21,194 nt of DNA. It comes from a virus (Duplodnaviria > Heunggongvirae > Uroviricota > Caudoviricetes). The notes under the pieces are model-generated. The model saw only the letters and a list, made by a program, of their open reading frames with translations. It had not been told where the DNA came from and searched no databases. Below, one piece after another: positions 1-11,310 of this stretch. Position numbers and translations under genes: made by a program. The stretch lies in the IMG/VR virus record IMGVR_UViG_2537561991_000022, one strand, 5' to 3'. Every line of letters starts with the position of its first letter. The first letter of the stretch is position 1.

Positions 1-1284
1 TTACTTCTTCGCCTCTGCAACCACTTTACTACCCACGCCGCGGTTATTGTATTCCCACATGCGGTTGTAGTTAGTGTCATTCAGATTGCGCTGTATTTCG
101 TCGTTATCATCTACGCTGCCGGTATTACCCGCAAACGGACGATTAGAGATCACCGCATCGGCCCACGGTTTAGCCGTGTTAAAACCTTCGTTGATGGCGC
201 TATCACGGATCACCACCTGACCGTTGGTATTGGCATCAACATCCAGCGAGCGGCCCAGTTGCGCCACACCATCACCGAAAGCATTGAAACGGCTGTTTAC
301 GGCGAGGAAACCGTAGTAAATGTTGGACAGCGTAGCCGGTGCAAACACATACGCTTCTTGCTGAGTACGTGAGTTCACCACGCGGAATTCGGTGTTATCG
401 AACACCACTGCGCCGCGACCAGAAACGATATCCACATCCCCTTCAATGTAGCTGTTGGTCACCAGCGTACGCGGCTGACGGTTGGTTTCCAGACGGTTCT
501 GCACACCGCTGTTGGTGACAAAGAAGGTGTTCTGACGACCGAGAATGTTAACGTTGTTAATCTGTACCTGGTCACCATCAGTACGCAGTGCCACCGCCGG
601 ATGGTTACCTGCATCTACGCTATCGCCCAGCGTGTTTTCGATGGTCAGATTTTGCAGTTGCAGGCCATTGTTTTGTGACCAGAAGACCGCAGAGCAGAGA
701 ACACCGATACTGTCGCTGCGTTTGCTCTGGCAGCTATCGTACATATACCACGCTGGTTTACCTGGCATATATTTGCCGCGCGGGTTGACGTCGTGACGCC
801 AGTCGGCAGGGCTCATGCCCCCATCAAGGGAAAGCCCAATCTTCACATCAATCGGTTTTTCACCTGTACCGTACAGAGTAATTCCACCCGGAGCAGCAGG
901 GACATACACCGTTCCCTGATACTCACCAGGCATCACGGCAATATACTGGCGCTTGTTAGTGCGCTTGATAATTGCCGCATCTACCGCCGCCTGAATCGTG
1001 GTATGCGTTACACCTTGAGTACCCGCCGGGCCGACAACAAAGTCAGGTTGCGCAGGCAGGGTAATCGGGGAAGGATTCCACGCTGCAGCACCTGGTGTCA
1101 GGGATGCAAAATAGTGTTGAGCATCGAAATTCTGCGCTTCTTTTGCCGACAGAATCGGGCGAGAAGAGGTACCAGGCGCGGTTTGATCAGAAGGACGTTG
1201 ATCGGGTGGTGTTGAGCTACAGGCGGTCAGCGTCACGCCAAAAGCCAATGCCAGCGCCAGACGGGAAACTGAAAATGTGTTCAC
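1..1284 (-). CDS. ybhC: Host outer-membrane lipoprotein YbhC (pectinesterase-fold / acyl-CoA thioesterase family), flanking attB-lambda
   Basis: Complete 427-aa ORF with lipoprotein signal MNTFSVSRLALALAFGVTLTAC (lipobox LTAC). Recognised from memory as E. coli YbhC, the gene next to the lambda attachment site. Confidence 0.85.
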   Translation of the reverse strand: MNTFSVSRLALALAFGVTLTACSSTPPDQRPSDQTAPGTSSRPILSAKEAQNFDAQHYFASLTPGAAAWNPSPITLPAQPDFVVGPAGTQGVTHTTIQAAVDAAIIKRTNKRQYIAVMPGEYQGTVYVPAAPGGITLYGTGEKPIDVKIGLSLDGGMSPADWRHDVNPRGKYMPGKPAWYMYDSCQSKRSDSIGVLCSAVFWSQNNGLQLQNLTIENTLGDSVDAGNHPAVALRTDGDQVQINNVNILGRQNTFFVTNSGVQNRLETNRQPRTLVTNSYIEGDVDIVSGRGAVVFDNTEFRVVNSRTQQEAYVFAPATLSNIYYGFLAVNSRFNAFGDGVAQLGRSLDVDANTNGQVVIRDSAINEGFNTAKPWADAVISNRPFAGNTGSVDDNDEIQRNLNDTNYNRMWEYNNRGVGSKVVAEAKK

Positions 1285-1330: not shown

Positions 1331-1430
1331 GCTTTTTTATACTAAGTTGGCATTATAAAAAACATTGCTTATCAATTTGTTGCAACGAACAGGTCACTAT
1401 CAGTCAAAATAAAATCATTATTTGATTTCA
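1331..1430. other. attL: attL: lambda att core GCTTTTTTATACTAA (1331-1345) joined to the phage P' arm with three tandem Int arm-type sites (1391-1420)
   Basis: Exact 15-bp lambda core; bacterial-side flank ...gaagcct, phage-side flank gttggcattataaaaaa; arm sites aggtcactat / cagtcaaaat / aaaatcatta overlap the int 3' end as in lambda. Confidence 0.85.
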
Positions 1431-2488
1431 ATTTTGTCCCACTCCCTGCCTCTGTCATCACGATACTGTGATGCCATGGTGTCCGACTTATGTCCGAGAA
1501 GATGTTGAGCAAACTTATCGCTTATCTGCTTCTCATAGAGTCTTGCAGACAAACTGCGCAACTCGTGAAAGGTAGGCGGATCCCCTTCGAAGGAAAGACC
1601 TGATGCTTTTCGTGCGCGCATAAAATACCTTGATACTGTGCCGGATGAAAGCGGTTCACGACGAGTAGATGCAATTATGGTTTCTCCGCCAAGAATCTCT
1701 TTGCATTTATCAAGTGTTTCCTTCATTGATATCCCGAGAGCATCAACATGCAATGTTGTAGGGATGGCAATTTTTACGCCTGTTTTGCTTTGTTCGACAT
1801 AAAGATATCCATCTACGATATCAGACCACTTCATTTCGCATAAATCACCAACTCGCTGCCCGGTAACAACAGCCAGTTCCATTGCAAGTCTGAGCCAACA
1901 TGGTGATGATTCTGCTGCTTGATAAATTTTCAGGTATTCGTCAGCCGTAAGTCTTGATCTCCTTACCTCTGATTTTGCTGCGCGAGTGGCAGCGACCGGG
2001 TTTGTTGTTATATGGCCTTCAGCTATTGCCTCTCGGAATGCATCGCTCAGTGTTGATCTGATTAACTTGGCTGACGCCGCCTTGCCCTCGTCTATGTATC
2101 CATTGAGCATTGCCGCAATTTCTTTTGTGGTGATGTCTTCAAGTGGAGCATCAGGCAGCCCCCTCCTTATTGCTTTAATTTTGCTCATGTAATTTATGAG
2201 TGTCTTCTGCTTGATTCCTCTGCTGGCGAGGATTTTTTCGTAGCGATCAAGCCATGAATGTAACGTAACAGAATTATCACTGTTGATTCTCGCTGTCAGA
2301 GGCTTGTGTTTGTGTCCTGAAAATAACTCAATATTGGCCTGTATTGCTTCAGTGATTGCTATCCTCCTGTCTCGGCCTAAACCAAACTCTTTACCCGTCC
2401 TTGGGTCCCTGTAGCAGTAATATCCATTGTTTCTTATATAAAGGTTAGGGGGTAAATCCCGGCGCTCATGACTTCGCCTTCTTCCCAT
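1418..2488 (-). CDS. int: Lambda integrase (tyrosine recombinase)
   Basis: 356-aa translation MGRRRSHERRDLPPNLYIRNNGYYCYRDPRTGKEF... matches lambda Int from memory; same length and overlap with xis as in lambda. Confidence 0.95.
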   Translation of the reverse strand: MGRRRSHERRDLPPNLYIRNNGYYCYRDPRTGKEFGLGRDRRIAITEAIQANIELFSGHKHKPLTARINSDNSVTLHSWLDRYEKILASRGIKQKTLINYMSKIKAIRRGLPDAPLEDITTKEIAAMLNGYIDEGKAASAKLIRSTLSDAFREAIAEGHITTNPVAATRAAKSEVRRSRLTADEYLKIYQAAESSPCWLRLAMELAVVTGQRVGDLCEMKWSDIVDGYLYVEQSKTGVKIAIPTTLHVDALGISMKETLDKCKEILGGETIIASTRREPLSSGTVSRYFMRARKASGLSFEGDPPTFHELRSLSARLYEKQISDKFAQHLLGHKSDTMASQYRDDRGREWDKIEIK

Positions 2489-2684
2489 TTCTGATCCTCT
2501 TCAAAAGGCTACCTGTTACTGGTCGATTTAAGTCAACCTTTACCGCTGATTCGTGGAACAGATACTCTCTTCCATCCTTAACCGGAGGAGGGAATATCCT
2601 GCATTCGCGCACCCATCGACGAACTGTTTCAAGGCTTCTTGGGCGTCGCTGGCGTGCGTTCCACTCCTGAAGTGTCAAGTACAT
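2466..2684 (-). CDS. xis: Lambda excisionase
   Basis: 72-aa translation MYLTLQEWNARQRRPRSLETVRRWVRECRIFPPPVKDGREYLFHESAVKVDLNRPVTGSLLKRIRNGKKAKS matches lambda Xis; 3' end overlaps the int start. Confidence 0.95.
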   Translation of the reverse strand: MYLTLQEWNARQRRPRSLETVRRWVRECRIFPPPVKDGREYLFHESAVKVDLNRPVTGSLLKRIRNGKKAKS

Positions 2685-2702
2685 CGCAAAGTCTCCGCAA
2701 TT

Positions 2703-2734
2703 ACACGCAAGAAAAAGCCGCCATCAGGCGGCTT
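2703..2734 (-). terminator. Intrinsic terminator-like hairpin just upstream of xis (tL3-like)
   Basis: Stem aagccgcc/ggcggctt (2715-2734) with 4-nt loop; on the minus-strand RNA it is followed by UUUCUUGCG. The IS target duplication abuts its upstream arm. Confidence 0.4.
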
Positions 2735-2738
2735 GGTG
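2731..2738. repeat. Left copy of the 8-bp target-site duplication GCTTGGTG flanking the IS66-family element
   Basis: GCTTGGTG sits immediately outside the GTAAGCG... terminus at 2739; an identical 8-mer is at 5193-5200. Confidence 0.7.
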
Positions 2739-2775
2739 GTAAGCGTGCAGCAAGAACCGTATTGACGGGGATGTG

Positions 2776-4314
2776 TTATTCAGTCGGCAGTGCTACGCGC
2801 CAGGGGAGCAGTTCGCCGACCCGGTTTATCGGCCAGTCGGCTATGACGTCAAGGACATAGCGGAGGTAGCTTTCTGGCTCCACTCCGTTCAGTTTGCACG
2901 TCCCGATCAGGCTGTACAGCAGCGCTCCCCGCTCTCCTCCATGATCCGAACCGAAGAACAGGTAGTTTTTGCGGCCCAGACTGACCATCCGCAACGCATT
3001 TTCAGCGATGTTATTGTCCGCCTCAGCCCAGCCATCATCTGCATAGTACGTCAGCGCCGGCCACTGGTTCAGGGCGTATGCGAACGCTTTCGCCAGTTCT
3101 GAGTGTCGCGACAGGGTTTTCATCTTTTCACGCAGCCAGCTTTCCAGGGATTTCAGCAGCGGTTTCGTTTTCAACTGACGTTCGGCAAGGCGCTGCTCCG
3201 CCGTCATTCCCCTTATCTCTGCCTCGATGGCGTACAGTTCGCCGATCCGTTTCAGCGCTTCCTCCGTCAGGGCTGACGGGGTGCGAACGTGCACATCGTG
3301 GATTTTACGGCGGGCGTGAGCCCAACAGGCGGCTTCCGTTATCCGGCCATCCCGGTACAGCTCGTTGAACCCGGCGTATGCATCCGCCTGCAGTACACCA
3401 CTGAACCCCGCAAGATGGGTCTGCGGATGGATGCCTTTTCTGTCCGGGCTGTAAGCGAACAACACCGCCGGCGCCAGCGTTGACCCGGCGTTACGGTCGT
3501 CACGAACGTAGGTCCATAACCGCCCGGTCTTCGTTTTCTTATTGCCTGGCAACAGCACCGGGACAGGCGTGTCATCAGCATGGAGCTTACCGTCAGTCAG
3601 CACATAGTCCTGAAGCGCTTCTTCCAGCGGTGACAGTAGCCGGCAGCATGCATCCACCCAGCCCGACAGCAGTGAACGACTCAGCTCCACGCCCTGGCGG
3701 CCGTACATTTCAGACTGGCGGTACAGCGGGGTGTGCTCTGCATACTTTGAGATCAGCACGCGGGCCAGCAGCCCCGGTCCTGCGATACCCCGCTCGATGG
3801 GCCGTGAAGGCGCGGGGGCCTGCACGATGGCATCGCACTGAGTACAGGCATGCTTTTCACGTACAGTCCGGATAACCCGGAAGGCGCTGCGCATCAACTC
3901 CAGCTGTTCGGCGGCATCCTCACCCAGATAGCTCAGTGAGCCTCCACATTCCGGGCAGCATGATGCTGCCGGCAGCAGCCGTTTTTCATCGCGGGGGAGT
4001 GATTCGGGGAACGGTTTGCGGGTGCGGGTTTGACGCAGCGGGCGCTGCACGGCCGGGTCGTCAACCCGACCGGTAAGGGTATCACTTTCTTTCTGAAGTG
4101 CCTTCAGGTCAGCTTCCATCTGTGCGATACGACGGGAGACTTTTTCGGAGCGGCTGCCGAAGTTCATCCGGCGCAGCTTATCCAGCTGTGCCTGCAGATG
4201 GTCTATTTCGCGTTCACGCTCGTTCAGCTTTTCCAGCAGGGCACGGTTCAGCGCCTCCTGTTCGGCAAGGAGACGTTTCAGTGCATTGATATCGTCAGGA
4301 AGTGAGCTGCTCAT
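2776..4314 (-). CDS. tnpC: IS66-family transposase TnpC
   Basis: 512-aa ORF with an N-terminal coiled-coil/leucine-zipper-like region ([38 protein letters not shown]) and a CxxC...CxxC cluster, typical of IS66 transposases. Confidence 0.9.
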
Positions 4315-4362
4315 ACCGGGTATATTACCAGGCTCATTCAGCGTCGACCAGGATAAAGAGGC

Positions 4363-4710
4363 TTACAACATAGTCAGGGACGTAAGCAGTCTTTTAGGCT
4401 GCCGCCAGTCGATACCTTCCAGCAGCATCGCCAGCTGTGCCGGTGTGAGGAACACTTTGCCATCCCGGGCTGACGGCCAGGCGAAGCGGCCGCGCTCCAG
4501 CCGTTTGGTCAGCAGACACAGTCCATCGCCGGTAGACCAGAGGAGCTTTACCTGACTGCCATTACGCCCACGGAAGATAAAAACGTGACCTGACATCGGA
4601 TCGTCTTTCAGCGTCGTCTGCACCTTTGCCGCCAGGCCGTTGAAGCCGTTTCTCATATCGGTGATGCCAGCGACCAGCCAGATCTTTGTCCCTGATGGTA
4701 ATGGGATCAA
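4363..4710 (-). CDS. tnpB: IS66-family accessory protein TnpB (Orf2)
   Basis: 115-aa ORF MIPLPSGTKIWLVAGITDMRNGFNGLAAKV... matches the conserved IS66 Orf2 family from memory; sits between tnpA and tnpC. Confidence 0.85.
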   Translation of the reverse strand: MIPLPSGTKIWLVAGITDMRNGFNGLAAKVQTTLKDDPMSGHVFIFRGRNGSQVKLLWSTGDGLCLLTKRLERGRFAWPSARDGKVFLTPAQLAMLLEGIDWRQPKRLLTSLTML

Positions 4711-5111
4711 CGTTTGAGCTCCCGTATCAGCAGGTTCAGGATATTTTCGCTGATGGCACCATTCAGACGGAGTGATCCGTGCCGGAACGTCACTTCACAG
4801 CTGATATTGAGTGATTCAGGTGTCGCAGCAGCTACAGGTTGTGACCGGGGGGAGGTTGTAGGGACAACATCTTCGGCATCAAGTGTTATCGGGAGCAGCT
4901 CAGGCACGTTGTTTTCTGTTGTTGAAGGAGGACGTAGTTTTCCTTCGCGCCAGTACTGGCGCCACTTGAACAGCAAATTATCGTTGATCCCATGCTCACG
5001 AGCGAGTTGCGCTACGGAGATCTCTGGTCGATGCGAGAGTTCAACCATTTTGATTTTGAACTCAACGGGATAATTAGGGCTTTTTTTACGCACTGCGGTT
5101 AATGATTTCAT
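4707..5111 (-). CDS. tnpA: IS66-family accessory protein TnpA (Orf1, HTH)
   Basis: 134-aa ORF; overlaps the tnpB start by 4 nt (ATGA coupling) as in IS66 elements; first gene inside the right inverted repeat. Confidence 0.85.
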   Translation of the reverse strand: MKSLTAVRKKSPNYPVEFKIKMVELSHRPEISVAQLAREHGINDNLLFKWRQYWREGKLRPPSTTENNVPELLPITLDAEDVVPTTSPRSQPVAAATPESLNISCEVTFRHGSLRLNGAISENILNLLIRELKR

Positions 5112-5192
5112 GGATAGCGTCCACCATATTTGGTGTCCACTATTCTCTCAGGAATTTCAGGATCTGCCAGACGGTGCTGAGACGACGCTTAC

Positions 5193-5200
5193 GCTTGGTG
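5193..5200. repeat. Right copy of the 8-bp target-site duplication GCTTGGTG
   Basis: Identical to 2731-2738, immediately outside the IS terminus ...gacgacgcttac (5192). Confidence 0.7.
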
Positions 5201-5389
5201 TTCTTTCAGTTCTTCAATTCGAATATTGGTTATGTCTGCATGTGCTATCTGCGCCCATATCATCCAGTGGTCATAGCAGTCATTGATGTTCTCTGCTTCG
5301 ATAACTCTGTTGAATGGTTCTCCATTCCATTCACCTGTGACTCGGAAGTGCATTTATCATCTCCATAAAACAAAACCCGCCGTAGCGAG

Positions 5390-5423
5390 TTCAGATAAAA
5401 GAAATCCTCGTCAGTGCGAGGAT
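5390..5423 (-). terminator. Terminator-like hairpin with U-tract on the minus strand
   Basis: Stem atcctcg/cgaggat (5404-5410 / 5417-5423), 6-nt loop; minus-strand RNA continues UUUCUUUUAUCU. Lies where lambda-like sequence gives way to the AT-rich replacement. Confidence 0.35.
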
Positions 5424-5595
5424 GCTGTTCATTGCTGCTATACACTTTTTTGCTCTCAACGTAAGCGGTAGCTCATTCTGTTGGGTTGGTGCAGTTGCTT
5501 TTAGGAAATGCTATTTACCCCTTAAACGTCGGCTGAAAGAGCTAAAATCCATGCAAAAAATTTACGCAATTTTGTGTATTATTGTGCAGTAAGTA

Positions 5596-6198
5596 ATGAG
5601 CTATTTTCTGCGCAAAAAATGGATGGTAAATTTGTCCGGGGCAGGAAAAATTTTATGGACGCTAAACATGAAAAAAGATTCGTATCCTTATTTGATTTGC
5701 ATGACAGTTTCAGGCCTGATCTTTATTTTCCTTTTCTTCTGGTGGCGGGCAGATATTTACAGGGTCACGTTTCTTAATCAGAGTATATCCCACTATTACA
5801 TTCTGTTTAGCATGGGAATAGCTTTTCTGTTATCTCTGTTTTGGGTTAAGAAGGGGATAGTAAAACAAAGCGGCTGGAAGAGTCTGTCAGCATACCTTAA
5901 GGTTTATGCAGGGATGTGCATATTTGCTGGATTTTTTCTGATTATACCCCTTACAACACTAACTTATTTTTTGCCTGGAGAGACATCGTCTTATGTTGCA
6001 CCGTATCGGTATACTTCCGGTAGTTCAAAAAGTTGTTCTGGAGCTGAGGTGGATGACCCCGATCTACATGAGAATATTCGCATTTGCTATCCGTATGGCA
6101 ATTATGAGTACGATAATATTATCTATGTTGAAAAGAAAATTAATACATTAGGTGCGGTAGTAACATATGCACAGACCGCGCGTGATGATACTGAATGA
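5596..6198 (+). CDS. Hypothetical integral membrane protein (3 predicted TM helices plus a ~70-aa Cys-containing C-terminal domain); start codon uncertain (5596, 5668 or 5701)
   Basis: ORF on the strand opposite to all neighbouring phage genes; hydrophobic segments LICMTVSGLIFIFLFFWW, YYILFSMGIAFLLSLFWV, VYAGMCIFAGFFLIIPLTTLTYF; strongly AT-rich; weak SD. Confidence 0.55.
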   Translation: MSYFLRKKWMVNLSGAGKILWTLNMKKDSYPYLICMTVSGLIFIFLFFWWRADIYRVTFLNQSISHYYILFSMGIAFLLSLFWVKKGIVKQSGWKSLSAYLKVYAGMCIFAGFFLIIPLTTLTYFLPGETSSYVAPYRYTSGSSKSCSGAEVDDPDLHENIRICYPYGNYEYDNIIYVEKKINTLGAVVTYAQTARDDTE

Positions 6199-6233
6199 GA
6201 TAGTATATAGCGGGCAAGTTTTAGTTAATTTAT

Positions 6234-6266
6234 CGAGGTAATATAATTTACCTCGACTCGTTTATT
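6234..6266 (+). terminator. Intrinsic terminator-like hairpin after the membrane protein gene
   Basis: Stem cgaggtaa/ttacctcg (6234-6241 / 6248-6255) with loop tataat, then T-rich actcgtttattc. Confidence 0.4.
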
Positions 6267-6408
6267 CTGGTATTAATATTTCGCTTTACGATCGATTTTT
6301 ATCTGATGATATCATGCGGTTTTCATATACTGACTTACTGTCTTTTCTCCGTTAGCGATTTTCTCCTGCTCAGCGATGATTTTATCTTTGGCTTCTAGTT
6401 AATTTCGC

Positions 6409-6630
6409 TCACTTCGAACCTCTCTGTTTACTGATAAGTTCCAGATCCTCCTGGCAACTTGCACAAGTCCGACAACCCTGAACGGCCAGGCGTCTTCGCT
6501 CATCTATGGGATCGCCACACTCACAACAATGAGTGGCAGATATAGCCTGGTGGTTCAGGCGGCGCATTTTTATTGCTGTGTTGCGCTGTAATTCTTCAAT
6601 TTCTGATGCTGAATCAATGATGTCTGCCAT
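6409..6630 (-). CDS. TraR/DksA-family C4 zinc-finger protein (lambda Orf73-like)
   Basis: 73-aa translation with CCECGDPIDERRRLAVQGCRTCASC (CxxC...CxxC), characteristic of the TraR/DksA family; matches the lambda early-left small ORF from memory. Confidence 0.8.
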   Translation of the reverse strand: MADIIDSASEIEELQRNTAIKMRRLNHQAISATHCCECGDPIDERRRLAVQGCRTCASCQEDLELISKQRGSK

Positions 6631-6682
6631 CTTCCATTAATCCCTGAATTGTTGGTTAATACGCTTGAGGGTGAATGCGAAC

Positions 6683-6706
6683 AATAAAAAAGGAGCCTGT
6701 AGCTCC
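6683..6706 (-). terminator. Short GC hairpin plus U-tract on the minus strand
   Basis: Stem ggagc/gctcc (6692-6696 / 6702-6706), loop ctgta; minus-strand RNA reads GGAGCUACAGGCUCC then UUUUUUAUU. Only 5 bp of stem. Confidence 0.35.
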
Positions 6707-6728
6707 CTGATGATTTTGCTTTTCATGC

Positions 6729-7010
6729 TCACCGTTCCTTAAAGACGCCGTTTAACATGCCGATCGCCAGGCTTAAATGAGTCGGTGTGAATCCCATCAG
6801 CGTTACCGTTTCGCGGTGCTTCTTCAGTACGCTACGGCAAATGTCATCGACGTTTTTATCCGGAAACTGCTGTCTGGCTTTTTTGATTTCAGAATTAGCC
6901 TGACGGGCAATGCTGCGAAGGGCGTTTTCTTGCTGAGGTGTCACTGAACAAGCCCCATGTCGGCAAGCATAAGCAAACAGAATATGAAGCCCGCTGCCAG
7001 AAAAATGCAT
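6729..7010 (-). CDS. Small hypothetical phage protein (lambda orf61-region homolog); possible internal GTG start at 6944
   Basis: 93-aa ORF whose C-terminal ~70 residues (TPQQENALRSIARQANSEIKKARQQFPDKNVDDICRSVLKKHRETVTLMGFTPTHLSLAIGMLNGVFKER) resemble the lambda early-left small ORF; true start unclear. Confidence 0.5.
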   Translation of the reverse strand: MHFSGSGLHILFAYACRHGACSVTPQQENALRSIARQANSEIKKARQQFPDKNVDDICRSVLKKHRETVTLMGFTPTHLSLAIGMLNGVFKER

Positions 7011-7020
7011 TCAGTGGTTG

Positions 7021-7212
7021 TCATACCTGGTCTCTCTCATCTGCTTCTGCTTTCGCCACCATCATTTCCAGCTTTTGTGAAAGGGATGTGGCTAACGTAT
7101 GAAATTCTTCGTCTGTTTCTACTGGTATTGGCACAAACCTGACTCCAATTTGAGCAAGGCTATGTGCCATCTCAATGCTCGTTCTTAACTCAACAGGAGA
7201 TGCTTTGTGCAT
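7021..7212 (-). CDS. Lambda Orf63-like small protein
   Basis: 63-aa [66 protein letters not shown]; position and length as lambda orf63. Confidence 0.75.
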   Translation of the reverse strand: MHKASPVELRTSIEMAHSLAQIGVRFVPIPVETDEEFHTLATSLSQKLEMMVAKAEADERDQV

Positions 7213-7367
7213 ACAGCCCCTCGTTTATTATTTATCTCCTCAGCCAGCCGCTGGGCTTTCAGTGGATTTTGGATAACAGAAAGGTCGGGAAATACCCAGC
7301 CTCGCTTTGTAACGGAGTAGACGAAAGTGATCGCACCTACCCGGATATTATCGTGAGGATGCTTCAT
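7185..7367 (-). CDS. Lambda Orf60a-like small protein
   Basis: ORF immediately downstream of exo; the 60-aa form starting [27 protein letters not shown]... matches lambda orf60a (the ORF track begins two codons earlier at 7373). Confidence 0.7.
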
Positions 7368-8044
7368 CGCCATTGCTCCCCAAATACAAAACCAATTTCA
7401 GCCAGTGCCTCGTCCATTTTTTCGATGAACTCCGGCACCATCTCGTCAAAACCCGCCATGTACTTTTCATCCCGCTCAACCACGACATAATGCAGTCCTT
7501 CACGCTTCATACGCGGGTCATAGTTGGCAAAGTACCAGGCATCTTTTCGCGTCACCCACATGCTGTACTGCACCTGGGCCATGTAAGCTGACTTTATGGC
7601 CTCGAAACCACCGAGCCGGAACTTCATGAAATCCCGGGAGGTAAACGGGCATTTCAGTTCAAGGCCGTTGCCGTCACTGCATAAACCATCTGGAGAGCAG
7701 GCGGTACGCATACTTTCGTCGCGATAGATGATCGGTGATTCAGTAACATTCACGCCGGAAGTGAACTCAAACAGGGCTCTGGCGTCGTTCTCGTACTGTT
7801 TTCCCCAGGCCAGCGCTTTAGCGTTAACTTCCGGAGCCACACCGGTGCAAACCTCAGCAAGCAGGGTGTGGAAGTAGGACATTTTCATGTCAGGCCACTT
7901 TTTTCCGGAGCGGGGTTTTGCTATTACGTTATGAACTTCTGAAGCTGTGATGACGCCGAGCCGTAATTTGTGCCACGCATCATCCCCCTGTTCGACAGCT
8001 CTCACGTCGATCCCGGTACGCTGCAGGATAATGTCCGGTGTCAT
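7364..8044 (-). CDS. exo: Lambda exonuclease (Red-alpha)
   Basis: 226-aa translation [65 protein letters not shown]... matches lambda Exo; start overlaps the bet stop (ATGA). Confidence 0.95.
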
Positions 8045-8826
8045 GCTGCCACCTTCTGCTCAGTGGCTTTCTGTTTCAGGAATCCAAGAGCTTTCACTGC
8101 TTCGGCCTGTGTCAGTTCTGACGATGCGCGAATGTCGCGGCGAAATATCTGGGAACAGAGCGGCAATAAGTCGTCATCCCATGTTTTATCCAGGGCGATT
8201 AGCAGAGTGTTAATCTCCTGCATGGTTTCATCGTTAACCGGAGTGATGTCGCGTTCCGGCTGGCGTTCTGCAGTGTATGCAGTATTTTCGACAATGCGCT
8301 CGGCTTCATCCTTGTCATAGATACCAGCAAATCCGAAGGCCAGACGGGCACACTGAATCATAGCTTTATGCCGTAACATCCGTTTAGGATGCGACTGCCA
8401 CGGCCCCGTGATTTCTCTGCCTTCGCGGGTTTTGAATGGTTCGCGGCGGCATTCATCCATCCATTCGGTAACGCAGATCGGATGATTACGGTCCTTGCGG
8501 TAAATCCGGCATGTACAGGATTCATTGTCCTGCTCAAAGTCCATGCCATCAAACTGCTGGTTTTCATTGATGATGCGGGACCAGCCATCAACGCCCACCA
8601 CCGGAACGATGCCGTTCTGCTTATCAGGGAAGGCGTAAATTTCTTTCGTCCACGGATTAAGGCCGTACTGGTTGGCGACGATCAACAATGCGATGAACTG
8701 CGCATCGCTGGCATCGCCTTTAAATGCCGTCTGGCGAAGAGTGGTGATCAGTTCCTGTGGGTCGACAGAATCCATGCCGACACGTTCAGCCAGCTTCCCT
8801 GCCAGCGTTGCGAGTGCTGTACTCAT
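8041..8826 (-). CDS. bet: Lambda Bet single-strand annealing protein (Red-beta)
   Basis: 261-aa translation [66 protein letters not shown]... matches lambda Bet. Confidence 0.95.
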
Positions 8827-8831
8827 CCGTT

Positions 8832-9248
8832 TTATACCTCTGAATCAATATCAACCTGATGGTGAGCAATGGTTTCAACCATGTACCGGATGTGTTCTGC
8901 CATGCGCTCCTGAAACTCAACATCGTCATCAAACGCACGGGTAATGGCTTTTTTGCTGGCCCCGTGGCGTTGCAAATGACCGATGCATAGCGATTCAAAC
9001 AGGTGCTGGGGCAGGCCTTTTTCCATGTCGTCTGCCAGTTCTGCCTCTTTCTCTTCACGGGCTATCTGCTGGTAGTGACGCGCCCAGCTCTGAGCCTCAA
9101 GACGATCCTGAATGTAATAAGCGTTCATGGCCGAACTCCTGAAATAGCTGTGAAAATATCGCCCGCGAAATGCCGGGCTGATTAGGAAAACAGGAAAGGG
9201 GGTTAGTGAATGCTTTTGCTTGATCTCAGTTTCAGTATTAATATCCAT
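8832..9248 (-). CDS. gam: Lambda Gam (RecBCD inhibitor)
   Basis: 138-aa translation [138 protein letters not shown] matches lambda Gam. Confidence 0.95.
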
Positions 9249-9346
9249 TTTTTATAAGCGTCGACGGCCTCACGAAACATCTTTTCATCGCCAATAAAAG
9301 TGGCGATAGTGAATTTAGTCTGGATAGCCATAATTGTTTGATCCAT
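9203..9346 (-). CDS. kil: Lambda Kil (host cell-division inhibitor)
   Basis: 47-aa reading frame [47 protein letters not shown] inside the 89-aa ORF; overlaps gam and cIII exactly as in lambda. Confidence 0.85.
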
Positions 9347-9479
9347 TTTTTGGGACTCCTGGCTGATTAAGTATGTCGATAAGGCGTTTCCATCCGTCAC
9401 GTAATTTACGGGTGATTCGTTCAAGTAAAGATTCGGAAGGGCAGCCAGCAACAGGCCACCCTGCAATGGCATATTGCAT
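9315..9479 (-). CDS. cIII: Lambda CIII (FtsH/HflB inhibitor, stabilises CII)
   Basis: Hand-translated 54-aa [57 protein letters not shown] (below the 60-aa cut-off of the ORF track); matches lambda CIII. Confidence 0.85.
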   Translation of the reverse strand: MQYAIAGWPVAGCPSESLLERITRKLRDGWKRLIDILNQPGVPKNGSNNYGYPD

Positions 9480-9551
9480 GGTGTGCTCCTTATTTATACA
9501 TAACGAAAAACGCCTCGAGTGAAGCGTAATTGGTATGCGGTAACGCCGCGC

Positions 9552-9920
9552 TCAGGCGGCCTTGATAGTCATATCATCTGAATCAAATATTCCTGATGTA
9601 TCGATATCGGTAATTCTTATTCCTTCACTACCATCCATTGGAGGCCATCCTTCCTGACCATTTCCATCATTCCAGTCGAACTCACACACAACACCATATG
9701 CATTTAAGTCGCTTGAAATTGCTATAAGCAGAGCATGTTGCGCCAGCATGATTAATACAGCATTTAATACAGAGCCGTGTTTATTGAGTCGGTATTCAGA
9801 GTCTGACCAGAAATTATTAATCTGGTGAAGTTTTTCCTCTGTCATTACGTCATGGTCGATTTCAATTTCTATTGATGCTTTCCAGTCGTAATCAATGATG
9901 TATTTTTTGATGTTTGACAT
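9552..9920 (-). CDS. ea10: Lambda Ea10 (small early-left protein)
   Basis: 122-aa translation MSNIKKYIIDYDWKASIEIEIDHDVMTEEKLHQINNFWSDSEYRLNKHGSVLNAVLIMLAQHALL... matches lambda Ea10; good SD (GAGGAT). Confidence 0.9.
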   Translation of the reverse strand: MSNIKKYIIDYDWKASIEIEIDHDVMTEEKLHQINNFWSDSEYRLNKHGSVLNAVLIMLAQHALLIAISSDLNAYGVVCEFDWNDGNGQEGWPPMDGSEGIRITDIDTSGIFDSDDMTIKAA

Positions 9921-9940
9921 CTGTTCATATCCTCACAGAT

Positions 9941-9966
9941 AAAAAATCGCCCTCATCTTGGAGGGC
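9941..9966 (-). terminator. Intrinsic terminator just upstream of ea10
   Basis: GC stem gccctc/gagggc (9949-9954 / 9961-9966) with 6-nt loop; on the minus-strand RNA it is followed directly by AUUUUUUAU (plus A-run 9941-9946). Confidence 0.55.
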
Positions 9967-10108
9967 AAAGAAGATTTCCAATAATCAGAACAAGTCGGCT
10001 CCTGTTTAGTTACGAGCGACATTGCTCCGTGTATTCACTCGTTGGAATGAATACACAGCGCTGTGTTTATTCTGTTGTTTGCGTGAAAATGAAATCCGCC
10101 TGAGCGGG

Positions 10109-10990
10109 TTATGACCACTTTTTGTTTGGGTTTCGTTGGTGAGCGTGGTTTACAGGATTATTTGATATACCCCATAACTCTGACTCGCTTATCTCTACAC
10201 GAGAGAAAGACCTGCTTTCTTTCAGTTCTTTTATAAACCTAGAACCTAAGATGACATCTATTGTACCAGAAAGTTCTTGTAAAAGATCTATGTTTTTTCT
10301 GAGGAAGAAAATATCTTCTTTATATTTAATTTTTACATAGAATTTATTCTGTATTTTTAATATATCAAAGCATGGCAGATATCTATATCCCTCATATTTT
10401 CGCCACTGCTTAACAATTATAACATCTTTTTCATTTACTGCATTAATCAGCCCAAGACCAAGTACAGGTATGAATATTCTATTGTCTGCCGAAAGCGTAC
10501 AATTATCACCACCAGGCAAATATGTATAAATCATGTCGGAATTTTTATACGCATCAACGAATGCACGTAAGAAGCGTACATATTTTTGCCATCCGTTTAT
10601 ACCGAATTTACCATATAAGTATTCTTTATTTGTTAGAAGAAAACTATTTGTATCAGGATCCTTATCTACAGACCTGTCGATAAGATCTCCAACTACGTTT
10701 ACAAAGTCAAAGACAGAGTTTAATAAGAACAATTGTCTTTCAGTAGGGCGAATTTCAATTATGTAGCCAGGATGAAGACGATATTGCATCTGCTTACGAA
10801 GTATACCGAACGCTTGGGTCCGAGCATCTGAAAGCAACTTCTTGTCGCCATCGCCGTGAGCATTGTTTCTAATAAAACTGATATAATTTGCTAATTTTTC
10901 AGCCTCTTTTTTGTGTTTTTTTCGCTCTGATGCTGAGTCTATTGGTTTTGGTATGGACTTGTAATCAATCTTCTTCATTACGTACCTCAT
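10109..10990 (-). CDS. Hypothetical 293-aa protein of unknown function in an AT-rich cassette between ea10 and N (lambda ral/sieB position); candidate anti-phage defence, exclusion or anti-restriction factor
   Basis: Uninterrupted ORF, strongly AT-rich versus flanks. Annotated ATG (10988-10990) overlaps the N stop codon (ATGA); an alternative ATG at 10978 (MKKIDYKS...) has an AGGT SD. No motif I can recognise (no P-loop, no Rx4-6H, no obvious PD-(D/E)xK). Confidence 0.65.
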   Translation of the reverse strand: MRYVMKKIDYKSIPKPIDSASERKKHKKEAEKLANYISFIRNNAHGDGDKKLLSDARTQAFGILRKQMQYRLHPGYIIEIRPTERQLFLLNSVFDFVNVVGDLIDRSVDKDPDTNSFLLTNKEYLYGKFGINGWQKYVRFLRAFVDAYKNSDMIYTYLPGGDNCTLSADNRIFIPVLGLGLINAVNEKDVIIVKQWRKYEGYRYLPCFDILKIQNKFYVKIKYKEDIFFLRKNIDLLQELSGTIDVILGSRFIKELKESRSFSRVEISESELWGISNNPVNHAHQRNPNKKWS

Positions 10991-11310
10991 GCCAATGGAA
11001 TGGATTCCCCTTTAACCTTTTGTCTTCCTTGACAAGTTATACCGAACTCACCTGGCTTGCTATACCAAACTCGATGATTCTTGCGCTCAATACGTTGCAG
11101 GTTGCTTTCAATCTGTTCGTGGTATTCAGCCAGCACCGTAAGGTCTATCGGATTCAGTGCGCTTTCTACTCGTGATTTCGGTTTGCGATTCAGCGAGAGA
11201 ATAGGGCGGTTAACTGGTTTAGCGCTTACCCCAACCAACAGGGGATTTGCTGCTTTCCATTGAGCCTGTTTCTCTGCGCGACGTTCGCGGCGGCGTGTTT
11301 GTGCATCCAT
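10987..11310 (-). CDS. N: Lambda N transcription antiterminator
   Basis: 107-aa frame MDAQTRRRERRAEKQAQWKAANPLLVGVSAKPVNRPILSLNRKPKSRVESALNPIDLTVLAEYH... within the 151-aa ORF; the arginine-rich N-terminus matches lambda N. The 44 upstream codons of the ORF are not part of N. Confidence 0.95.
   Translation of the reverse strand: MDAQTRRRERRAEKQAQWKAANPLLVGVSAKPVNRPILSLNRKPKSRVESALNPIDLTVLAEYHEQIESNLQRIERKNHRVWYSKPGEFGITCQGRQKVKGESIPLA

Follow-up and report, generated by a model that had tools for sequence, protein, structure and literature searches.

Between gpQ and gpA, P2-like phages have an established hotspot, home to old, tin, and a number of defence systems that have been validated (Rousset 2022, PMC9122126). 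Three out of eight further systems of this hotspot tested by Rousset et al. were defensive, and its cargo also includes partition systems and toxins (PMC9122126). The prophage expresses both old and tin, whose products exclude other phages; old encodes a cytoplasmic ATPase/nuclease and tin a cytoplasmic protein. In P22, the prophage inner-membrane protein SieA blocks DNA entry, and is proposed to act on the periplasmic or membrane conduit for DNA delivery (PMC10883804). HK97 gp15 and P1 Sim are further DNA-entry blockers (cited in PMC6832061), and gp15 is the textbook moron: an additional gene of deviant base composition that is equipped with a promoter and a terminator and whose membrane product blocks DNA entry. 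By its sequence, the element described here appears to have the same architecture as the gp15 moron.

This element lies in a 21,194-nt stretch of lambdoid phage DNA (hereafter the window), in the slot that ea8.5 and ea22 occupy in lambda. When the window was compared with lambda and phage 434 by BLASTN, lambda homology appeared at 1331-2738, at 5193-5423, and then from 6397, with none at 5424-6396. Because homology ends at 5423 and restarts at 6397, the borders originally predicted for the replacement of ea8.5 and ea22 by non-lambda DNA (5425-6395) were right within 1-2 nt. The displaced lambda sequence (29356-30379) comprises ea8.5 and ea22 minus its first five codons. The insert thereby sits in the exo-xis region, between orf55/tL4 on one side and the zinc-finger gene, orf61, orf63, and orf60a on the other, but is on the opposite strand to the genes that it replaces and unrelated to them in sequence. 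At its right border, the start of ea22 and the stop codon of the TraR/DksA zinc-finger gene (6409-6630) overlap, and on the left, beyond the short lambda-like stretch, an IS66-family element (2739-5192, Pfam) is present with an 8-bp target duplication, GCTTGGTG. The AT-richness noticed at the outset was borne out, and here too the composition deviates as in other morons: the GC content of the insert is 37.9%, versus 48.0% in the lambda-like DNA on its right and 46.6% over the whole window, and equally AT-rich stretches of equal size amount to 7.7%, all of them in another accessory region around 9700-11100. The features of the locus are collected in Table 1.

Table 1. Coordinates of the insert, its immediate surroundings, and the parts of its predicted product (nucleotide positions in the window, or residues of the 176-aa protein where marked aa).
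Feature	Position	Strand	Remarks
Lambda/434 backbone left of the insert	5193-5423	-	BLASTN: lambda 95.7%, also 434
orf55	5189-5353	-	3' end changed by the IS; PHROG 676; ORF55 in the M60848 annotation
tL4 terminator hairpin	5404-5423	-	terminator scan; t-L4 in the M60848 annotation
Non-lambda insert	5424-6396		973 bp; 100% identical to phage 434
gpQ-side P2-like cos flank relic	5445-5535	+	local alignment to P2-like locus L014, 5693-5785
Hotspot-side cos flank relic	5536-5590	+	A-tract at ~5554-5560 and three 10-bp-phased degenerate heptamers
Heptamer TTACGCA	5562-5568	+	
Heptamer TTGTGTA	5572-5578	+	
Heptamer TTGTGCA	5582-5588	+	
Candidate sigma-70 promoter	5604-5632	+	-35-like TTTTCT at 5604-5609, 17-bp spacer, extended -10 TGgTAAATT at 5624-5632
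CDS	5668-6198	+	176 aa and stop; weak RBS GGA at 5657-5659
TM1	aa ~5-29		
Conserved periplasmic loop	aa 30-36		IYRVTFL, between TM1 and TM2
TM2	aa ~38-61		
Cytoplasmic loop	aa 61-72		K-rich
TM3	aa ~70-101		
Periplasmic beta domain	aa 102-171		five-stranded; invariant C123 and C140
Terminator-like hairpin	6233-6256	+	9-bp stem, 6-nt loop, 35 nt past the stop codon
Ead/Ea22-like 3' stub	6312-6398	-	28 codons and stop, no start codon; weak evidence
First five codons of lambda ea22	6395-6412	-	GTG-S-E-I-N; TAG stop at the junction

The left part of the insert is a broken P2-like cos site. The gpQ-side relic and its counterpart in locus L014 share 68 of 89 positions (score 46, against 15.3 +/- 2.1 for shuffled sequences), and the homology ends exactly at the start of the P2-like cohesive-end core; about 85 bp, including this core, are gone. 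When set against a P2-like backbone consensus for the cos region derived from 114 IMG/VR contigs, the two relics align to both flanks of the site, with the core deleted between them. The phased heptamers of the second relic correspond to a TTGTGCA triple repeat, which belongs to the backbone of at least 120 P2-like contigs whose sequences diverge right after it, and which decays in cassettes that no longer adjoin cos. A reading of this repeat as a gene-specific operator (for a response regulator, for CII, or as DnaA boxes) was dropped because the exact triple repeat precedes unrelated genes in these contigs, with backbone upstream and divergence downstream. Judging from this comparison, the CII site that the 434 record marks at 5572-5585 (TTGT-N6-TTGT) is a degenerate remnant of the P2-like repeats.

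At the right end, the match is weaker: positions 6355-6398 of the Ead/Ea22-like stub align with L014 6713-6756 and with a second P2-like locus, L159 (4521-4564), at 77% over only 44 nt (BLASTN). The counterpart in the P2-like hotspot is an Ead/Ea22-like ORF that is convergent to the gene, and that of L159 is recognised as Pfam Ead_Ea22, the stub alone being too short for Pfam. Between these ends, the homology to the P2-like cassette extends over 5531-6305 at 76% identity, and the gene, the 137 nt upstream of it, and the downstream hairpin move jointly between lambdoid prophages of the 434 type and the P2-like hotspot.

In this hotspot, homologues of the gene (49-78% identity) lie between the portal gene gpQ or cos and the replicase gene gpA of P2-like prophages of E. 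coli, Salmonella, Klebsiella, and Enterobacter, with variable neighbours such as YafO, HicAB, an AAA_16 protein, or ParM/StbB. They share their slot with old and tin, as the first gene inward from cos and in the orientation of old, and, as at the P2 promoter P-old, three phased short repeats and a candidate promoter stand ahead of them. The likeness ends there, as the 176-aa product is a predicted membrane protein without homology to the old and tin proteins, and the cassette of the window is a transplanted version that sits in a lambdoid rather than a P2-like phage. Its presence or absence is seen among collinear relatives: where lambda has ea8.5 and ea22, the segment is found in 434, in phages 2B8 and mEp332, and in 916 of 5,426 complete E. 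coli genomes (~17%), including O157:H7, O121, and O104:H4. The P2-like allele was found in 77 genomes. In addition, at least seven Enterobacter species have orthologues fixed at one and the same non-phage position of the chromosome (LysR - gene - GGDEF - AI-2E transporter), and chromosomal copies also occur in Klebsiella sp. R390 and Pseudescherichia; outside these loci, most copies are in phage accessory slots. The chromosomally fixed Enterobacter orthologues show that the gene family is not purely a phage weapon.

The plus-strand ORF originally proposed for the segment is present, but not at its full length of up to 200 aa. The open frame spans 5596-6198, and its true start is the M25 codon at 5668, since every homologue begins there and the 24 upstream codons hold in-frame stops in homologous cassettes; the 200-aa version was accordingly dropped. 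Several other gene calls were also set aside. An upstream 56-aa ORF (5422-5592) overlies the broken cos region, a 112-aa "variant" found in at least 1,000 contigs arose because an internal GTG was taken as the start of the 176-aa ORF, which is intact there too, and shorter or longer family matches (P0082-P0124), considered as domain fusions, turned out to be gene-call fragments and one spurious repeat protein. Public records label the gene just "putative membrane protein" or "hypothetical protein"; their annotation can now be mended as regards the start codon, the probably spurious 56-aa ORF, and the "CII site", which is a P2 repeat relic. Conservation, one of the tests that the original prediction had named for its ORF, speaks for the gene: dN/dS is 0.08-0.15 among the 434, E. 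coli P2-like, and Salmonella P2-like alleles, with synonymous sites saturated. From these alignments, the 176-aa ORF is a real gene under strong purifying selection (dN/dS of about 0.1).

The gene appears to carry its own expression signals. A promoter had been expected near 5550-5595, a region that proved to be P2-like cos-flank relic; the conserved promoter-like element instead lies just downstream of it, with a predicted transcription start at ~5639-5641. With the chromosomally fixed copies set aside, 9 of 11 cassettes share its extended -10, TGnTAA(A/G/T)TT, at -44 to -48 relative to the ATG; they come from E. coli, Salmonella, Enterobacter, Cedecea, and Citrobacter. The element is conserved while the adjoining repeats decay. 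The terminator-like hairpin that had been placed at 6234-6266 was recovered with slightly different limits and with CTCGTTTATT after it. Together with it, the scan gave 4 terminator-like sites in all, versus 1.5 in shuffled sequences, and the E. coli P2-like allele has a weaker hairpin at the equivalent place. Against independent expression stand the weak -35, a simple promoter scan that did not flag the site, and the poor U-tract of the hairpin.

AF2 models (pLDDT 87 and 91) and the positive-inside charge bias predict three transmembrane helices with a cytoplasmic N-terminus, in line with the three helices and Cys-containing C-terminal domain first read from the translation, and an inner-membrane location such as that of SieA is predicted on the same grounds; the second loop has a net charge of +3.7. 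The C-terminal domain is modelled as an OB-like beta-barrel of about 75 aa that would face the periplasm and contains an invariant Cys pair, with exactly two Cys in 33 of 33 sequences. Conservation within the protein is strongest in this domain. In the models, a strand of the TM1-TM2 loop pairs with the barrel, and both of these conserved parts are predicted to be on the periplasmic side, leaving only about 25 residues in the cytoplasm. The best fold matches of the C-terminal domain are DUF1093 and small membrane-anchored OB-like beta-barrels (PDB 3npp, 2k5q, 3rd4), likewise five-stranded and of about 75 aa, several of which are from membrane-associated proteins of unknown function.

Searches for relatives of known function, by sequence or by fold among solved and viral predicted structures, were negative. 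Neither the protein nor any of 20 family members matched Pfam-A or NCBIfam above threshold, Pfam colicin/bacteriocin immunity families included; no PADLOC-DB v2 defence HMM was found at E <= 1; and a PDB sequence search of the protein and an Rfam search of the non-coding parts of the insert returned nothing. The only family match is PHROG 1416, an unannotated family that spans just the last 88 aa. Homology to SieA of the P22 type, one of three SieA types, was dropped on a BLASTP E of 12 and an hhalign probability of 0.2%. The gene is absent from the validated systems of the P2 hotspot study (PMC9122126), and a survey of the literature on 434, mEp332, 2B8, the exo-xis region, the accessions, and the P2 hotspot found no paper on it.

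As both cos flanks, the promoter, the hairpin, and the Ea22-like stub are kept in the 434 insert, the cassette can be regarded as a transplanted, self-contained moron. By these comparisons, it is a one-gene unit that was at first cos-proximal cargo of the gpQ-gpA hotspot of a P2-like phage and that later entered a 434-lineage lambdoid phage by recombination, bringing along both P2-like cos flanks (with the cleavable core deleted), the extended -10 promoter, the gene, and the hairpin; the left junction adjoins the tL4 hairpin and the right one falls within ea22/Ea22-like homology. The cargo has crossed between phage families, apparently via a shared Ea22-like gene, the two families having no common backbone genes in the regions compared. 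The original view of an independently expressed moron that replaces ea8.5/ea22 and opposes the pL operon is strongly supported by these sequence comparisons, given the mobility of the unit, the conserved -10, and purifying selection, and the element very probably is a P2-derived moron that is expressed independently and codes for a real membrane protein. One might instead see in it the debris of a P2-lambdoid recombination, a decaying hitch-hiker without function in the lambdoid prophage, and debris is indeed present in the form of the broken cos site, the degenerate repeats, and the Ea22-like stub. This is, however, very improbable in view of the low dN/dS across alleles at saturated synonymous sites, of an ORF that is intact in phages whose isolation dates differ by decades and is carried at >=80% coverage by 906 genomes, and of a promoter element that is kept while neighbouring repeats decay. 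Even harder to credit is a CII-activated antisense unit, in which the ORF would be secondary and a plus-strand RNA would oppose pL read-through into xis/int during lysogenisation. Although a CII consensus is annotated in the 434 record and the P22 annotation places a C1-activated antisense RNA, aI, in the corresponding region, the motif is a TTGTGCA-repeat remnant of P2-like phages, which are not known to have a CII; moreover, no acceptable -10 is present at pRE/pI/paQ spacing, and an ORF under such selection is not incidental.

As to function, the original prediction had suggested exclusion or abortive infection. Of these and other roles, superinfection exclusion at the inner membrane or in the periplasm is the most likely one, held tentatively and at somewhat less than even probability, and the same reserve applies to the overall statement of a P2-derived moron with an exclusion function. 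In the repressed prophage, the candidate promoter would drive transcription of the gene against pL, and the product would act on the outer side of the inner membrane or within the periplasm, where the periplasmic domain may bind the DNA-delivery apparatus of an incoming phage, or an inner-membrane protein used by it, and block genome entry. With P22 SieA it shares a small size (176 aa versus 164 aa) and the origin from a single prophage gene outside the essential operons, here with a candidate promoter of its own, but neither sequence nor profile similarity, and it adds a predicted folded periplasmic beta domain. HK97 gp15, T4 Imm, and P1 Sim are likewise entry-blocking membrane or periplasmic proteins; the protein here is presumably unrelated to them. 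Both gp15 and Imm are much smaller and are not known to have a periplasmic domain. Exclusion is weakened by the lack of similarity to SieA or to any PADLOC, Pfam, or NCBIfam model, and the hotspot argument is guilt by association only, with three of the eight further systems being defensive. The chromosomal orthologues of Enterobacter, Klebsiella sp. R390, and Pseudescherichia moreover fit a cellular envelope role that phages have borrowed. In such a role, which is possible but rather doubtful, a periplasm-facing membrane protein unrelated to exclusion would benefit the host by protecting or modulating its envelope, e.g., through immunity to a periplasm-acting bacteriocin or T6SS effector or through stress or bile tolerance, the phage copy being a lysogenic-conversion gene. 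The fixed chromosomal loci are consistent with it, as are the gene kept intact in a heavily decayed prophage remnant of strain E189 and the non-defence cargo of P2 hotspots, though the retention in E189 counts for the main reading too; several periplasmic immunity or inhibitor proteins are also built as a small disulfide-capable periplasmic beta domain. Yet no Pfam match links the protein to colicin/bacteriocin immunity or another family, no toxin gene adjoins it in any context examined, and the copies beyond the chromosomal loci are mostly in phage accessory slots. An abortive-infection effector, which would depolarise or permeabilise the inner membrane once infection is sensed and kill the cell before phage release, is improbable. 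Single membrane proteins are common suicide effectors, some of them in P2/P4 hotspots, and the gene has the hotspot location; however, there is no partner sensor gene, as neighbours differ in every context, and with so few residues predicted in the cytoplasm there would be no cytoplasmic sensing surface. Conservation is also centred on the periplasmic domain and not on the helices, while a promoter that looks constitutive and a gene present in 17% of genomes are hard to fit to a toxic pore.

New here, from sequence comparison, are the homologues in the P2-like hotspot, the cos-flank relics with their core deleted, the conserved extended -10, and the Ea22-like stub. Phage 434 was among the models on which molecular genetics was founded, and the broken P2-like cos in a lambdoid genome is a clean molecular fossil of accessory cargo moving between two phage families. 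The presence of the gene in ~17% of complete E. coli genomes, major pathogens among them, and its link to the best-validated P2-like defence hotspot therefore make it a candidate that is well motivated and cheap to follow up for a novel role in exclusion or in the envelope. It is conceivable, if on balance unlikely, that with the 176-aa protein a hitherto unrecognised family of entry blockers begins, each encoded by one gene and using an OB-like domain, anchored in the membrane and exposed to the periplasm, to intercept the DNA-delivery machinery of incoming phages or the inner-membrane receptor that these use. If so, the cassette would shuttle an entry blocker between the P2-like hotspot and the lambdoid exo-xis region, i.e., between the two main temperate coliphage lineages, and would add to the phage resistance of about one-sixth of E. 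coli strains, including EHEC O157:H7, O104:H4, and Shigella sonnei, while the chromosomal copies of Enterobacter would be domesticated versions.

The prophage occupies the lambda attachment site, adjoining ybhC, and BLASTN against lambda and phage 434 places att, int and xis within a lambda-homologous block at window 1331-2738. Homology returns at 5193-5423 and is then interrupted until 6397, leaving an insert of 973 bp (5424-6396) without a lambda counterpart, in place of lambda 29356-30379, i.e., ea8.5 and all of ea22 except its first five codons. Its GC content is 37.9%, against 48.0% in the lambda-like DNA to its right. The original prediction had described an AT-rich replacement carrying a plus-strand ORF and a terminator-like hairpin, and its limits and contents were all recovered. 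Phage 434 shares 99.3% identity with window 5193-10420 and 100% with the insert alone.

An IS66-family element, bordered by an 8-bp target duplication (GCTTGGTG), has orf55 on one side and the xis/t'I hairpin on the other. It parts int-xis from pL read-through, so that excision of the prophage may be impaired; strain 2015C-3163 carries a 100% identical insert and lacks this element. On the other side of the insert, the stop codon of a TraR/DksA-type zinc-finger gene overlaps the start codon kept from the truncated ea22. Farther on, window 9700-11100 is the most AT-rich stretch (about 35% GC) and contains a 293-aa ORF that is likely another accessory gene; at what would be the corresponding place the 434 record has a "Nun C-terminal peptide-containing protein", the 434 alignment ending at window 10420. 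A segment of the prophage also turns up, at 98.6-99% identity, as a 3.6-kb contig in a MAG labelled "Candidatus Nanosynbacter sp.", where it is almost certainly a contaminant.

Features of the insert and its surroundings (window coordinates)
Feature	Position	Strand	Details
IS66-family element	2739-5192		2,454 bp; three ORFs (transposase, TnpB-like, HTH) by Pfam
Degenerate heptamers	5562-5588		TTACGCA, TTGTGTA, TTGTGCA; comparison with P2-like loci
Weak -35-like element	5604-5609	+	TTTTCT; 17 bp upstream of extended -10
Extended -10 element	5624-5632	+	TGgTAAATT; just downstream of repeat relic
Membrane-protein CDS	5668-6198	+	176 aa; homologue starts, upstream stops
Terminator-like hairpin	6233-6256	+	9-bp stem
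TraR/DksA-type C4 zinc-finger gene	6409-6630	-	PF01258, PHROG 54
ORF in AT-rich stretch	10109-10990	-	293 aa; without Pfam match

Its sequence relationships identify the insert as a TRANSPLANTED fragment from a P2-like phage. Window 5531-6305, which comprises 137 nt before the ATG of the membrane-protein gene, the gene itself, the hairpin and about 50 nt past it, is 76% identical to an E. coli P2-like locus. The upstream part of this span holds an A-tract followed by three heptamers with 10-bp phasing, which in P2-like loci read TTGTGCA three times after an A7 tract and have degenerated here. Searching IMG/VR for exact copies of the triple repeat returned at least 120 contigs; among those listed (L038-L157), roughly 200 nt of conserved P2-like backbone precede the repeats, including a match to the P2 cohesive end (GCTGTTCCCCCGTCACC versus P2 cosR), and divergence sets in immediately past the third repeat. 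None of these 120 contigs has the membrane-protein gene as first ORF downstream, which argues against the repeats belonging to the gene's own control region. Conserved backbone before them, divergence after them and unrelated first ORFs together identify the repeats as the last backbone element beside cos, where they may serve either packaging or transcription of the accessory slot; P2 has three analogous (A)ATGCA repeats of its own at the -35 region of the old promoter. The other side of cos is also represented, as window 5445-5535 matches the gpQ-side cos flank at 68 of 89 positions (score 46 versus 15.3 +/- 2.1 for shuffles) in an alignment that ends exactly where the cohesive-end core starts, about 85 bp including this core being missing from the window. 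The insert thus retains the sequences on either side of a P2-like cos site, the cleavable core between them having been lost.

At the right-hand end, window 6355-6398 weakly resembles (77% over 44 nt) an Ead/Ea22-like ORF that in the P2-like locus is convergent to the gene, and lambda homology restarts at the five initial codons of ea22. Many P2-like hotspots carry a lambdoid-type Ead/Ea22-like gene beside a ParM/StbB partition system (comparison loci L014 and L159, 4477-4812 in the latter; cf. window 6312-6412), an arrangement repeatedly listed in Table S5A of Rousset et al. (2022, PMC9122126). This shared gene may have been a recombination bridge between the two families. The cos relic fixes the direction of transfer of the left part as P2-like to lambdoid; beyond that, the simplest history that we infer would start from a P2-like phage whose cos-proximal cargo was the gene, adjoined by an Ea22-like gene. 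Homology in ea22 would have mediated its recombination with a lambdoid phage at the right end, and the left end would have been joined illegitimately beside the tL4 hairpin. Within the limits of the literature searched, we found no report of this origin, the cos relic or the distribution of the insert.

The plus-strand ORF of the original prediction (5596-6198, 200 aa) is a real gene, but its product is shorter. The start of every diverged homologue corresponds to methionine 25 of the 200-aa ORF, and the 24 upstream codons contain in-frame stops in homologous cassettes (gene, upstream DNA and downstream hairpin) of P2-like prophages from E. coli, Salmonella and Enterobacter, which defines a CDS of 176 aa. 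Public gene calls for this one intact ORF range over 200, 188, 176 and 112 aa, and PHROG 1416 spans only its last 88 residues. A search of 5.8 billion proteins yielded 74 relatives, and only 61 came from 1.84 billion cluster representatives searched exhaustively with a profile; those with a stated organism are all from Enterobacteriaceae, and the seemingly full-length ones are all about 170-180 aa. The conservation asked of the ORF was borne out: dN/dS is 0.10 between the 434 and E. coli P2-like alleles and 0.08-0.15 against Salmonella alleles, with synonymous sites near saturation, a pattern indicating strong purifying selection. The sequence has been public in part since 1990 (M60848) and in full since 2022 (OL657226), its product bearing no label other than putative membrane protein or hypothetical protein. 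A 56-aa ORF at 5422-5592 (+), a "putative membrane protein" in the 434 record and a "hypothetical protein" in mEp332, is probably not a gene, as it overlies the broken cos region, with its 85-bp deletion relative to P2-like phages, and has no database matches.

The cassette also seems to bring its own expression signals. With chromosomally fixed copies excluded, 9 of 11 cassettes have TGnTAA(A/G/T)TT at -44 to -48 relative to the ATG (434-type, P2-like from E. coli, Salmonella and Enterobacter, two islands and Citrobacter), and the element is retained even where the heptamers have decayed to two, one or none. This conservation is the main argument for a candidate cassette-borne promoter at the extended -10, which a simple hexamer scan did not flag; transcription would then start near 5640, excluding the 5596 start codon too. 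The hairpin past the gene is strong but followed by a poor U-tract, and the E. coli P2-like allele has a weaker one at the equivalent place. The "transcription factor CII" site of the 434 GenBank record (5572-5585) coincides with the degenerate repeats and is probably a P2-like relic instead, several chance occurrences of TTGY-N6-TTGY being expected in a genome of this size.

An AlphaFold2 model of the 176-aa protein, built with a 20-sequence alignment, is confident (pLDDT 87) and consists of three long helices (residues 5-29, 38-61 and 70-101), a short strand (34-36) in the first loop and a five-stranded beta domain (105-171; pLDDT 91 when modelled alone). Across 33 diverse members, the short N-terminus has a charge of +1.5 and the loop between helices 2 and 3 a net +3.7 in about 16 residues, while the C-terminal domain is slightly acidic with exactly two cysteines in all 33. 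The positive-inside rule and this cysteine pair, which implies an oxidising compartment, predict a cytoplasmic N-terminus and second loop and a periplasmic first loop and C-terminal domain, with only about 25 residues facing the cytoplasm. Mean top-residue frequency is highest in the C-terminal domain (0.60; helices 0.37-0.49, cytoplasmic loop 0.30), and the first loop has a conserved IYRVTFL motif with several invariant positions, so that the functional surface is predicted to face the periplasm. The protein matches neither SieA nor any PADLOC or Pfam model and belongs to no described family.

The family is mostly, not exclusively, mobile phage cargo. Among 5,426 complete E. coli genomes, 916 have the gene in a 434-type lambdoid prophage, in every case on the chromosome, including O157:H7, O121 and O104:H4, and large Shigella sonnei clusters are also represented; among isolated phages only 434, 2B8 and mEp332 have it. 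The P2-like allele is present in 77 complete E. coli genomes. In P2-like prophages the gene sits between portal gpQ and replicase gpA (identity 78% in E. coli, 58-70% in Salmonella, 55% in Klebsiella and 57% in Enterobacter) beside variable neighbours: small ORFs, YafO, HicAB, an AAA_16 protein, or ParM/StbB with an Ead/Ea22-like gene. This slot, the old/tin locus next to cos, was shown to be a hotspot for anti-phage systems, although it also houses partition systems and toxins and only three of eight further systems tested were defensive (Rousset et al., 2022, PMC9122126). Other copies lie in small degraded islands adjoining SBP_bac_5, Bax1-I (yccA-like) and DsrC genes (Cedecea and one further genome), in Klebsiella sp. 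R390 and Pseudescherichia chromosomes, and at a fixed LysR - gene - GGDEF - AI-2E transporter locus in at least seven Enterobacter species, with between-species identities of 64-97% for the membrane protein versus 82-86% for the GGDEF neighbour. At this Enterobacter locus the orthologue lies 17 nt downstream of the LysR-family gene, with which it may be co-transcribed, and upstream of the convergent HAMP-GGDEF gene and the transporter. In E. coli E189 (dsdC-torI region), an intact gene (176 aa per RefSeq) persists in a heavily decayed KplE1/CPS-53-like remnant, beside phage genes that are pseudogenes or IS-disrupted.

What emerges is a mobile, self-contained and strongly conserved gene for a membrane protein, the conserved surface of which is predicted to face the periplasm. 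The gene would be expressed from the prophage independently of pL, its product acting either within the periplasm or on the inner membrane's outer face, and we tentatively favor superinfection exclusion by a block of genome entry as its likeliest role. This is suggested by its two recurrent homes, both accessory slots where temperate coliphages keep genes acting on other phages, by its needing no partner, and by precedents among prophage inner-membrane proteins that block DNA delivery, namely SieA (PMC10883804) and HK97 gp15 and P1 Sim (cited in PMC6832061). Lambda and 434 need the inner-membrane ManYZ for DNA entry (PMC6832061), the kind of step that such a protein could obstruct.

Abortive infection, which the original prediction had also raised, is less likely: essentially no cytoplasmic surface is left for sensing infection, a point that also counts for exclusion. 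The main rival, somewhat less likely than exclusion, is an envelope function that is unrelated to phages and that prophages would carry as lysogenic conversion; the intact copy in the E189 remnant and the orthologues fixed in Enterobacter chromosomes speak for it. That the segment is junk DNA, or that it has an antisense role driven by CII from the annotated site, is less likely.

The element most likely belongs among ordinary morons and hotspot cargo genes. The gene is thus not surprising in kind; it is widespread, easy to test, and present in major pathogens as well as in a classical phage, and the insert that carries it is a tidy fossil record of two phage families exchanging cargo.
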